From an uncultured Gammaproteobacteria bacterium (lineage in GTDB: Bacteria; Pseudomonadota; Gammaproteobacteria; Magnimaribacterales; TMED112): DNA of 61,029 nt. Under the pieces are notes generated by a model. That model was not told where the DNA came from and ran no database searches. It was given only the letters and a program-made list of their open reading frames with translations. A program made the translations under genes and the position numbers. Position 1 is the stretch's first letter; each line of letters opens with the position of its first letter. Below are positions 11,862-22,912 of this stretch, one piece after another. The stretch is from contig CAJWAI010000004.1 in NCBI GenBank assembly GCA_913020145.1, positions 1 to 61,029 of the forward strand. The letters are read 5' to 3'.

Positions 11862-12363
11862 AGCATTTTTAATAATTTTTTTACTTTTACTACTAAGTCT
11901 ATTTAGTTTTTTTGCTATCTCCCTTCAAAATGATTATGTGCAGCCAGTCAAAAATCAAGAAGGCAAGCCTCTTATTTTAGATAGACAGCTTTATACAATC
12001 GACGGAAAAAAGATAAGTGAAGATTCCCTATTAACAGGGAAAGTAATTTTAAATGTTTATGCAAGTTATTGTCTTCCATGTGAGGTTGAACACCCATTTC
12101 TAATTGAAATTGCAGACTCAAAGGATGTAAAAATGGTAGGGGTAAGTCATAAAGATCAGGTTTCTGCCACTAAAGTATATCTTGAAGAATTAGGCGATCC
12201 ATATGATTTTTCCATTCTTGATTTAGATGGTGACTTTTCTTTAAAGTTGGGAGTAATAGGTCCCCCAGAAACATTTTTAATTATTGATGGAGAGATTGTT
12301 GCTCATAGGATTGGTGTAATTGATATAAATATTTGGAATGAAAAATTTGAGAAATATTTTTAG
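11851..12363 (+). CDS. ccmG: Thiol:disulfide interchange protein CcmG/DsbE
   Basis: N-terminal TM, NVYASYCLPCEVEHP (CxxC), GPPETF. Confidence 0.93.
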   Translation: MTTRAFLIIFLLLLLSLFSFFAISLQNDYVQPVKNQEGKPLILDRQLYTIDGKKISEDSLLTGKVILNVYASYCLPCEVEHPFLIEIADSKDVKMVGVSHKDQVSATKVYLEELGDPYDFSILDLDGDFSLKLGVIGPPETFLIIDGEIVAHRIGVIDINIWNEKFEKYF

Positions 12364-12724
12364 ATCTTTATTATTCTTTTGCTTTTTTATACAGGCAGAT
12401 GCTCTTTATGAAGATTTAGATAAAGAAGAGTTAGAACGGCTTGAATATCTCGCAGATAATATTAGATGTCCTATGTGCTCATATGGGAATTTGTCCAGCT
12501 CTAATGCTCCAATATCTAGTGACCTAAAGCAAGAAATTGCTTCTTTAATTAATGAAGGTTATTCAGACCAAGAAATTTTTGATTTCATGCAAGATAGATA
12601 TGGAGATTACATATTGCTCGACACAAATATTGAAGATAATAGGTCAATTTTTCTTATCCCTTTAGTGGTTTTATTTATATCCATATTGCTTGTAACCACC
12701 TATACTATTAGAAAATCTAAATGA
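12338..12724 (+). CDS. ccmH: Cytochrome c biogenesis protein CcmH (short CcmL-type)
   Basis: IRCPMC, SNAPIS, RYGDYI, C-terminal TM. Confidence 0.92.
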   Translation: MKNLRNIFRSLLFFCFFIQADALYEDLDKEELERLEYLADNIRCPMCSYGNLSSSNAPISSDLKQEIASLINEGYSDQEIFDFMQDRYGDYILLDTNIEDNRSIFLIPLVVLFISILLVTTYTIRKSK

Positions 12725-14927
12725 GACTTAAAAGCTTAAAAATAGCAGGGTTCAAAAGTTTTGTTGACCCAATCCAGATTGATTTTCCAGGAATCATGTG
12801 TGGCATTGTTGGCCCTAATGGATGCGGAAAATCCAACATCATTGATGCCATAAAATGGGTGAAAGGAGAGCTCTCACCTAAAAGCCTTAGAAGCGAAAGT
12901 CTTCAAGATGTAATTTTTAATGGTTCTGACACTAGAAAGCCTGTTAGCCATTGTTCAGTTGAGCTATTTTTTGATAATTCTGAAAATTTCTTAGGTGGGG
13001 AATATCTTGAATTTGATGAAGTAAGTGTAAAAAGAGAGATGGGTCGTGATGGACAATCAAACTACTTTATTAATAATGCTTCTGCTAGAAGAAGGGACGT
13101 TCAGGATCTTTTTCTTGGCACTGGTTTAGGAGGAAATAGTTACGCAATTATTGAGCAGGGCATTATATCTAGTTTAGTAGGAGCCAAACCAGAAGAGCTT
13201 AGAAGCTATGTTGAAGAAGCAGCAGGAATCTCAAAGTACAAAGAAAGAAAGAGAGAAACAGAATCAAGAATAAGAAGAACATCCGAGAATATTTCAAGAC
13301 TTAAGGATTTAGAAGATGAAGTCAAAAGATCAATTAGAAGATTAAATGCTGAAGCAAATTTAACATCAAAATATAAAAAATTAAGAGACAAGGAAAAGCA
13401 ATACCAAAAATTTATACTTTCTGATGATATGAGTGAGCTAATGAAGCTGATGAATCAGTCAGAAAAAGAAAATAAATCAATTGATAAAGATCTCGAGAAA
13501 ATAGATGGCGATAGATTGGCTCTAGTTGCTAAAAGAGATGTCAATAAGACTCAGCTAATGGAAAGTCTTAAAGATCTTGAAGAAGAACAAAGAGGATTCT
13601 TTGAATCAGGAGCAAAAATATCTTTAATAGAAGAAAAAGAAAGAACTGTTGCAAGCCGTATAGAGGAATTATCAAAAGAAGAACAAAAGAATCTGGTTAA
13701 TCTTGGAGATTTATCAAAAGAATTAGACTCAGCGAAGTCTGATTTAAGCAGAATTGATGAGAAAGTCATGGAAGGCATCGTCAATGACTCTAAAAACATC
13801 TTAGAAAGCATGGAATCTAATATAAGTAAGAAAGATTCAAGTTTAATTGAAAAGTCATTAAAAGAATTCTGGAAGAAAGGCTATCAATATGGTGTAGGCG
13901 AAAGTGGAGAAGCAGTAGAGACAATAAATGCTTTGCGTGGGCAGTTTGCATCACGAAATGATCAAATTACTAAAGACATAGAATCCATGAAGAAAAATCT
14001 TGCCAAAGAAAAAGGTGAACTTTCAGGTTTAGTTGAAACAAGAAAGAGTCAAGAGTTAAAAGTCATCGAACTAAGATCAAATCAAGATAAAGCAAATGAA
14101 GAAATGAGAACTATAGAAGCAGAAATTACAAAATTAGAGTCTGAAAAAGAAAGAATAGTACAACAAAGAAATGAAAAAGAAGTTAGCAAAAGAACAATCG
14201 AAATAGATATCAAAGAAAAACAAGAAAGATTAGATGCTTATTCAGAAGTTAAAGATTTAGAAGGCGAAAGAGAATCAATTGTTCAAGATTTAGAAAAATT
14301 ACAAAAAAGAATAATGAACCTTGGACCAATTAATTTTGCAGCTCCAGAAACACTAGAAGCAGAAAAAGAACGTAAAGAAACTTTATCTGGCCAAATAGAA
14401 GAATTAGAGACATCCTTAAATAAATTAGATGAAGCAATTAGAAAAATCGATATGGAGTCAAATAAGTCTTTTCATAATTGTTTAAATTCAGTAAATAAAT
14501 ACCTAGAAGAAATGTTTCCTAAACTTTTCGGCGGCGGTTTTTGTAAATTAGATTTATTAGATAAATCTGAAGACTCAGGCTTGATATTAATGGCTAGATT
14601 GCCAGGAAAGAAAAATACAAAACTATCTCAACTGTCAGGTGGTGAAAAAGCATTAACAGCATTAGCTCTTGTCTTTTCTCTATTTTCTATCAATCCTGCA
14701 CCATTTTGTTTATTAGATGAGGTGGATGCACCTCTTGATGATGACAACACTGCAAGATTTATAAGTCTTGTTAATGAAATGTCAGAGAAAGTTCAGTTTA
14801 TCTTTGTAACTCATAATAAGATTTCAATGGAGAAAAGTTCTCATTTACTTGGAGTTACTATGCGAGATCTCGGAGTATCAAAAGTTGTATCTGTCGATGT
14901 GGAACAGGCTATGGAGTTAGCGCAATC

Positions 14928-14931
<4 letters not shown>
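12721..14931 (+). CDS. smc: Chromosome segregation SMC protein, unusually short (736 aa)
   Basis: GFKSF, Walker A GPNGCGKSN, Q-loop IIEQG, EEAAGISKY, LGPINFAA, LSGGEK, LLDEVDAPLDD, VTH; smc-zipA-ligA synteny. Confidence 0.9.
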
Positions 14932-22255: not shown

Positions 22256-22912
22256 TTGATTATGAGTGAAAGTACGAGAATTCCACCAAGAAGGAAATCA
22301 AAAGGTGATGGACAGTTTATGTTCAGTGCTTTGATATTAGTTCTTGTTGTAGCATCTCTATTAGGAATGTACTTCTATATTGAGGATCAAAAAAATAAGA
22401 GCGGTGAAGCGGTTGAAATAATTGCAGGCAAAGTTCAGAACATAGAAAGTAAATTATCGATTACTAATGAAGACTCTGCACAGAATATGGATACTGTGAC
22501 AGACCAGATATCTTTTTTAGATAAAGAGGTAAGGAAATTATGGGCACATCGTAAGGGATATCTCGAAAATTTTAAGAATCAAGAGAACCAGCTTAATTCT
22601 AATGAAAAGAGCATTAAAAATTTAAGATCTCAGATAACAGGAGTGGATGATAAATTAGGGTCTTTAAATGAAAAGATACAATTAGCAGAAGATCTTCAGC
22701 TCAAAATAACACTCCTTACCAATGAGCTAAATAAGCAGAAAAAAATTTTAGAAGATAATGAAGAAACTTTAGGAGCTATAGATCAATATAGAATACAAAA
22801 TAATCAAAAAATCACCGAAGTACTTAATAGGTTAAATAATCTATCAAGAGAGCTAGAAGATATAGAGTCTGATTTAAATGCATTAAGTCCAACCGGAAGT
22901 AACAATGAATAA
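22256..22912 (+). CDS. Membrane-anchored coiled-coil protein of unknown function (start possibly 22262)
   Basis: One N-terminal TM followed by long heptad-rich region with LDKEVRKLW motif. Confidence 0.75.
   Translation: MIMSESTRIPPRRKSKGDGQFMFSALILVLVVASLLGMYFYIEDQKNKSGEAVEIIAGKVQNIESKLSITNEDSAQNMDTVTDQISFLDKEVRKLWAHRKGYLENFKNQENQLNSNEKSIKNLRSQITGVDDKLGSLNEKIQLAEDLQLKITLLTNELNKQKKILEDNEETLGAIDQYRIQNNQKITEVLNRLNNLSRELEDIESDLNALSPTGSNNE

Follow-up and report, generated by a model that had tools for sequence, protein, structure and literature searches.

A short-armed Smc without a hinge in a CHAB-I-7/TMED112 bacterium of the SAR86 lineage

The Smc (structural maintenance of chromosomes) protein of Bacillus subtilis has been redesigned in the laboratory: Burmann et al. 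(2017; PMC5344682) report that its hinge is replaceable by the zinc hook of Rad50 and that a shortened Smc is functional again at arm lengths of 253-267 residues, and they describe modes of 163 (minor), 238, 341, 423 and 515 residues for natural Smc arms. Their survey found hinges by alignment, and hinge-less proteins would have fallen outside it. A clade of hinge-less SMC proteins that is abundant in the ocean and assigned to Actinobacteria was described in 2025 (PMC12153180). Here we analyse the smc gene on a 61,029-nucleotide stretch of DNA (contig CAJWAI010000004.1 of assembly GCA_913020145.1; "the window") from an uncultured gammaproteobacterium of SAR86 (Magnimaribacterales), a group that is among the most abundant surface-ocean bacteria and of which a cultured isolate exists (PMC11582366). 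The window's genome measures 0.93 Mb in 55 contigs and is 83% complete. Its Smc, 736 amino acids (aa) long, has a complete ATPase head and two arms but no recognisable hinge.

Identity and descent of the 736-aa protein

The gene lies at window positions 12721-14931 (+) and encodes 736 aa in one frame without an internal stop. All head motifs reported in the first-pass annotation of this DNA were found in the uninterrupted frame: GPNGCGKSN (aa 31-39), IIEQG (143-147), LSGGE (638-642), LLDEVDAPLD (664-673) and VTH (696-698). The key residues of all five are invariant in 30 of 30 aligned members of the order. The equivalog model of bacterial Smc, TIGR02168, scored 725.8 bits (cut-off 567.35). The match falls into two stretches, which place residues 2-368 on model positions 1-360 and residues 416-727 on positions 859-1181; about 47 residues thus stand in for some 500 model positions that comprise the distal arms and the hinge. 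Pfam SMC_N spans aa 3-720 (1.4e-56). Other families of SMC-like proteins fitted far less well, with 29.8 bits for the RecN model TIGR00634 (cut-off 407.85) and 51 bits for the best Rad50 model (cut-off 700). Structural comparison agreed with this assignment: the top Foldseek matches of an AlphaFold2 (AF2) model were prokaryotic Smc head, coiled-coil and ScpA structures, the best being 5xei (E 3.9e-27), which comprises the head of Smc, coiled coil and joint.

Relatives were sought by an exhaustive phmmer search over 1.84 billion cluster representatives. Five of the best 150 matches listed represent SAR86 length classes (736, 732, 995, 810 and 827 aa); the others are two hinge-bearing proteins of ~1000 aa, two of 1109-1110 aa and 141 of 1132-1188 aa. 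The nearest full-length relatives in sequence are gammaproteobacterial Smc proteins of 1130-1190 aa with 34-56% identity. A tree of 64 rows was computed, with the first 300 and the last 330 residues taken from each; the rows were 22 of the 36 SAR86 sequences plus two representatives, the other matches below 1120 aa and every fourth remaining full-length match. In it, the 24 SAR86 rows are split from the 40 others, all but four of which measure 1149-1187 aa, by a branch with a support of 99 in the Shimodaira-Hasegawa-like approximate likelihood ratio test (SH-aLRT). Within SAR86, the families form two pairs (support 99 and 96). If the root of this unrooted tree lies among the full-length proteins, the topology would fit a single loss before the order diversified. 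The stem branch of the window's family (f1) is long, 1.45 changes per site and several times any other internal branch; according to the account in PMC11582366, the whole SAR86 lineage evolves fast and the CHAB-I-7/TMED112 family most of all, so that the long stem needs no change of function.

Each genome holds one smc gene, and the SAR86 clade adjoins full-length Smc. A result that the first-pass annotation had named as contrary to its reading, a grouping with RecN or SbcC combined with a full-length smc elsewhere, was looked for and not found. Judged by sequence, the 736-aa protein is an orthologous Smc by descent rather than by textbook architecture, namely a hinge-less derivative.

Absence of a hinge, and the predicted arms and tip

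The absence of a hinge, proposed when the DNA was first read, held up in three kinds of analysis. In scans with hidden Markov models, the SMC hinge model PF06470 gave no match in the protein at E<=0.1 or in the whole genome at E<=1, and all 41 order genomes were negative as well (0/41). As a control, the same model was positive in four of ten proteins tested, namely the full-length relatives P0124 (30.0 bits) and P0139 (32.2 bits) and, from other lineages, two proteins with lengths of 990 and 1003 aa. Two proteins of 1109-1110 aa from other Gammaproteobacteria, P0136 and P0138, also lacked a Pfam hinge match. We did not count them as additional cases of hinge loss: P0136 has a non-helical centre that looks like a divergent hinge and was missed by Pfam. 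A negative Pfam result alone is therefore no proof of hinge loss.

Profile comparison and structure prediction pointed the same way. A profile of the tip, made from 27 sequences of the genus, was compared by hhalign with a profile of 80 full-length Smc proteins and did not match their hinge (E 0.49), while its wider flanks were collinear, if weakly (E about 0.08-0.1), with positions 300-351 and 811-886, which puts the loss at about positions 352-810. The AF2 model has no strand between the two halves of the head, the centre being all helical. A zinc hook is absent too: this protein contains no CxxC, and a central one occurs in none of the 36 SAR86 sequences (0/36). The segment WKKGYQYGVG, which a MAFFT alignment to full-length Smc offered as the start of a hinge, was taken as a chance alignment in view of the hhalign value. 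One sign of hinge loss brought forward initially, the missing GX6GX3GG motif, turned out not to be diagnostic; its absence here is uninformative because full-length relatives also lack the strict form (0/141), and even a relaxed form occurs in only 4/141.

In the AF2 model, built with a 30-sequence alignment (mean predicted local distance difference test score, pLDDT, 75.2), helices cover residues 170-342, 347-364, 370-391, 395-505, 517-533 and 541-603. Each arm strand thus measures about 173-175 residues, or about 195-200 should the coil extend through both tip helices to an apex at aa 365-369. The claim of roughly half-length arms is borne out by these values (~175-200 residues against about 330-340 in canonical Smc), and among the SAR86 classes the 736-aa Smc has the shortest arms. 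The strands would pair in antiparallel fashion, as the Smc-like fold suggests. The AF2 model of the 822-aa family likewise has an all-helical centre (helices 170-360, 367-405, 411-443 and 447-584; pLDDT mostly 72-88). A fit to the arm-length modes of PMC5344682 was tried and given up: the arm of the 736-aa form falls between the published modes, and that of the 822-aa family, about 236-245 residues with the tip helices counted as part of the coil, would land on the mode of 238. Because the borders of the tip are so uncertain, we claim neither placement.

The central Gly/aromatic segment EFWKKGYQYGVG highlighted by the first-pass annotation is present, starting at aa 382, one residue before the 383 given there. 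It belongs to an element, aa 382-416, in which W384, G387, G391, G393, F409, R412 and I416 are invariant or at least 90% conserved in 21 sequences of the genus (invariant: G387, G393, F409, R412 and I416), and which sits at two facing strand breaks of the AF2 model, 343-346 and 392-394. Prediction of a tip homodimer (two copies of aa 300-450 with the genus alignment) gave a score of 0.38, compared with a mark of 0.42 and controls at 0.00, and counts neither way. A word-based search with the tip alone (aa 335-415) revealed no source for it, the method being blind to distant relatives; all 54 matches were close relatives, 52 of them 736 aa long and two fragments.

Arm length has also increased within the order. 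The 995-aa Smc L030 (G035:C4) corresponds to residues 1-345, 225-537 and 394-732 of the 732-aa L027 (G029) joined in this order; paired segments of the N-terminal strand (about 120 aa) and the C-terminal strand (about 143 aa) were both duplicated, as if the tip had been exchanged for a second copy of a hairpin that includes more of the arms (arm-tip-arm). L030 nests within the short forms (tree support 87). On the evidence of these sequences, the ~1000-aa class of one SAR86 family is the ~730-aa hinge-less form lengthened again.

Distribution, selection and possible modes of action

The short smc gene is present in 37 of 41 genomes of the order, including all 21 that are at least 90% complete (21/21), and the four genomes in which it was missed are 60-70% complete. 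Open frames of the same genus measure 733-759 aa and share 71-97% identity. In a larger sample of 151 genomes of the order, each at least 80% complete, the gene was found in 143, one-contig genomes among them. Frames uncut by a contig end fell at 729-759, 809-817, 825-843 and 996-1010 aa, and none in this sample reached the usual 1130-1190 aa; compared across SAR86, as the first-pass annotation had proposed, Smc is short in all classes (729-1010 aa). In a collection of 5.8 billion proteins, 113 of the best 120 protein clusters listed, with sources in ENA, JGI, NCBI and Tara, were exactly 736 aa long, and public records of "SAR86 cluster bacterium" with the gene include single-cell genomes and two complete chromosomes. 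All sampled words of the central stretch (100%) are present in the DNA runs of four studies. Two further studies contribute contigs of RNA libraries (13685-14148 and 13676-14206) that are collinear across the tip-coding part; one of the contigs has a gap of 2 bases at 14167, and DNA may be present in such libraries.

Purifying selection on the gene is strong, and its constraint is clear. Ratios of nonsynonymous to synonymous substitution (dN/dS) were estimated pairwise by the Nei-Gojobori method (NG86) from the 13 of 231 pairs with a whole-gene dS of 0.05-1.5. The rough median over the whole gene was 0.035. By region it was 0.011 in the heads, 0.04-0.05 in the arms, 0.13 in the tip (aa 343-394) and 0.027 in the element aa 382-416; constraint was weakest at aa 330-381 (0.16). 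Both the selection analysis and the search for an assembly deletion came out in favour of the original reading, and no artefact was found. The hinge-less short arm is a lineage-wide selected trait, not an assembly deletion.

The partners of Smc are retained. ScpA and ScpB are encoded next to each other on contig 5 of the window's genome (54771-55400 and 54250-54729), with Pfam models matched almost end to end; among the 41 order relatives, ScpA was found in 38 and ParB in 34. No second Smc, MukB or RecN was found in the window's genome, where the MukB N-terminal domain PF04310 gave no match at E<=0.01. The question of whether scpAB or mukBEF accompanies the short Smc is answered in favour of ScpAB. 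As an observation beyond this genome, RecN (TIGR00634) was above its cut-off in none of the 41 order genomes (0/41), a set that includes 21 with a completeness of 90% or more, and the matches of the model were only weak P-loop ones, to RecF-sized frames and to Smc itself. SAR86 may be without RecN altogether, and the short Smc is most likely the only condensin of the lineage.

Taken together, the protein is very probably the single orthologous Smc of this CHAB-I-7/TMED112 bacterium, a hinge-less short rod that would work as Smc-ScpAB. It would have originated from a full-length (~1170 aa) gammaproteobacterial Smc by internal loss of about 460 residues, which would have removed, in register, the hinge and those portions of the two arm strands that adjoin it. 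The short Smc would still be the motor of Smc-ScpAB on a chromosome of ~1 Mb, with ATP-driven head engagement bridged by ScpA, loading at ParB/parS, and alignment and segregation of the chromosome arms by the short rod. Two Smc molecules would probably be held together by zipping of arm against arm and by a small helical bundle at the tips, with the W384/G387/G391/G393 element as candidate interface in this genus; for this last step we see an even chance.

Several points weigh against this interpretation. Function with ScpAB is suggested by the co-retention of the genes, and ParB was not found in the window's genome at its 83% completeness. The dN/dS values are rough, with dS at 0.6-1.3 and near saturation. 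Dimerisation at the tip is a proposal, and the tip interface a candidate that may equally well turn out right or wrong: AF2 predicts the tip with low confidence (pLDDT 52-63), and the element at aa 382-416 is genus-specific, with no conservation across the remaining three families. Between the four families the centres do not align, so that there is no order-wide dimerisation motif. Arm length counts here as well, since the SAR86 arms (~175-200 residues) lie below the 253-267 residues at which B. subtilis Smc regained function, and none shorter is described as functional in the portion of PMC5344682 drawn on here.

The alternative that survives best has no joint at the tip: the rods would be held by ScpA and the ATP-engaged heads, with or without lateral arm contacts, as an open-ended clamp in place of a closed ring. 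We regard this as possible though on balance unlikely. Every functional B. subtilis construct described in that same portion of PMC5344682 kept some dimerisation domain, which speaks against a clamp, as does the constraint on aa 382-416, which equals that on the arms (dN/dS 0.027), together with the five residues invariant there in 21 sequences. A clamp would agree with the lack of any dimerisation domain recognisable by Pfam or hhalign, with tip sequences that differ between the four families and with the low constraint on aa 330-381.

A changed job, in which the protein would serve mainly as a RecN-like clamp in DNA repair or cohesion and not as a loop-extruding condensin, appears quite improbable. 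RecN is itself short and hinge-less, it was not detected above cut-off in any of the 41 genomes, and the f1 stem is very long, points that would fit such a change. Nevertheless, ScpA, ScpB and ParB are all retained in the lineage, and the protein passes the Smc equivalog model while scoring only 29.8 bits with that of RecN. The fast SAR86 clock, as described in PMC11582366, accounts for the long branch. An assembly deletion, pseudogene or binning artefact can be set aside, for although the genome is incomplete and fragmented and no tip-spanning contig was obtained from two DNA runs (contigs filtered; only short end pieces from one run and nothing from the other), the same architecture recurs in 143/151 genomes, including one-contig, single-cell and complete ones, almost all of the best-matching clusters share the exact length, the frame is open and constrained, and its words are present in the DNA runs of four studies.

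The preferred reading, a short rod working as Smc-ScpAB, leaves room for a bolder claim, namely that the arms of SAR86 Smc-ScpAB are joined neither covalently nor stably at their far end, with no hinge, hook or tip interface. We think this unlikely to hold. If true, a closed tripartite ring would not be required for condensin in a free-living, globally abundant bacterium, and arm length would be freely tunable by loss and matched re-duplication of paired segments, a tuning that would have yielded the classes of about 730, 810, 825 and 1000 aa in one order.

The locus in context and comparison with known systems

The features of the locus are collected in Table 1. Upstream of smc lie ccmF, a redoxin gene and ccmH, and downstream are zipA and ligA, as in the smc-zipA-ligA neighbourhood that had been recognised from the letters alone; we take this synteny to be shared with other Gammaproteobacteria. 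The genes ccmH, smc, zipA and ligA overlap or abut, by 4 nucleotides (nt) at both ends of smc and by 11 nt between zipA and ligA. The division protein ZipA is shortened too, with only 213 aa and 28.4 bits against the ZipA equivalog cut-off of 119.65. Elsewhere in the window, a 218-aa frame with a TTG start (22256-22912, +) has weak coiled-coil matches (tropomyosin-like, E about 0.003) and also matched the arm part of the Smc model (23.5 bits).

Table 1. Positions of smc, its parts and its neighbours in the window
Feature	Position	Strand	Description
smc	12721..14931	+	736 aa plus stop codon; hinge-less short-armed Smc; open frame, TIGR02168, SMC_N
N-terminal half of ATPase head, aa 1-165	12721..13215	+	Walker A GPNGCGKSN, Q-loop Q146; AF2 strands and helices
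N-terminal arm helix, aa 170-342	13228..13746	+	one AF2 helix, pLDDT about 75-90; collinear with model positions to 360
Tip, aa 343-394, at the hinge's usual place	13747..13902	+	AF2 helices 347-364, 370-391; breaks 343-346, 365-369, 392-394
Genus-conserved element, aa 382-416	13864..13968	+	W384, G387, G391, G393, F409, R412, I416
C-terminal arm, aa 395-569	13903..14427	+	AF2 helices; joint-like break at 506-516; model position 859 onward from aa 416
C-terminal half of head, aa 570-736	14428..14928	+	LSGGE 638-642, Walker B/D-loop LLDEVDAPLD 664-673, H698
ccmH	12338..12724	+	PF03918, 2.1e-24; stop overlaps smc start by 4 nt
zipA, 213 aa	14928..15569	+	PF04354 ZipA_C, 1.5e-10; start overlaps smc stop
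ligA, 658 aa	15559..17535	+	NF005932, 752.9 bits

A literature search returned no paper that links SAR86 with Smc or describes a hinge-less Smc in SAR86, and the main text of the SAR86 isolate paper (PMC11582366) mentions neither smc nor condensin nor chromosome segregation. The present protein is the first hinge-less Smc that this search found for Gammaproteobacteria. The hinge-less SMC is already a known kind of protein (PMC12153180), of which SAR86 adds a new and probably independent lineage. The first-pass annotation saw in the short Smc a challenge to the size requirements of rings and loop extrusion; its description of the structure was right, whereas the impact was overstated when set against PMC5344682 and what the main text of PMC12153180 reports. 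Short SMC forms may occur in several phyla, a lead that comes from the ESM Atlas, in which the feature clusters nearest to P0001 are SMC_N-only proteins of 747-882 aa from Actinomycetota, Minisyncoccota, Spirochaetota and Pseudomonadota.

An order-wide hinge-less Smc with ScpAB amounts to a natural experiment on whether bacterial condensin needs its hinge, the roles at stake being those of dimeriser, DNA-binding site and possible gate. A second standing question that it addresses is the minimum length of Smc arms. The four arm-length classes, one of them formed by matched duplication, provide a comparative series for the rule that arm length changes in discrete steps. The cultured isolate (Ca. 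Magnimaribacter mokuoloeensis HIMB1674) belongs to a sister family, and genomes that are probably of that family carry an 821-827-aa hinge-less form, which makes the questions of hinge and arm length directly testable; the smc of the isolate itself would be this form of ~822 aa.

Compared with canonical bacterial Smc (TIGR02168; B. subtilis type; 5xei, 5xg3, 3zgx), the SAR86 form shares the head motifs, the neck and the joint-like break, and has in common with it the partners ScpA and ScpB and, in the lineage, ParB. It differs by the missing hinge, by arms of about 175-200 instead of about 330-340 residues and by the roughly 500 model positions that are gone. RecN and Rad50/SbcC likewise combine SMC-like heads with a coiled coil and lack the SMC hinge, but the SAR86 protein scores far below their cut-offs, has no zinc hook and is accompanied by kleisin partners, not by Mre11/SbcD. 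The oceanic hinge-less clade of PMC12153180, compared here by its main text only, resembles SAR86 Smc in its SMC heads, its hinge-less coiled coil without CxxC, its abundance in the ocean and the lack of a canonical SMC beside it. That clade is assigned to Actinobacteria, and the main text mentions neither SAR86 nor Gammaproteobacteria and does not treat ScpAB, arm length or selection. Hinge loss in SAR86 is likely independent of this clade, because the SAR86 proteins group with gammaproteobacterial Smc. The closest parallels in design are the Mini-Smc and Smc(Zn-hook) constructs of B. subtilis, which, as far as described in the portion of PMC5344682 drawn on here, indicate that shortened arms and an unrelated substitute for the hinge are compatible with function, as they would be in the SAR86 form. 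In these constructs the arms measure 253-267 residues and a proven dimerisation domain is retained, whereas the SAR86 protein has shorter arms and no known dimeriser. SAR86 Smc is a natural counterpart of a design known until now mainly from the laboratory.

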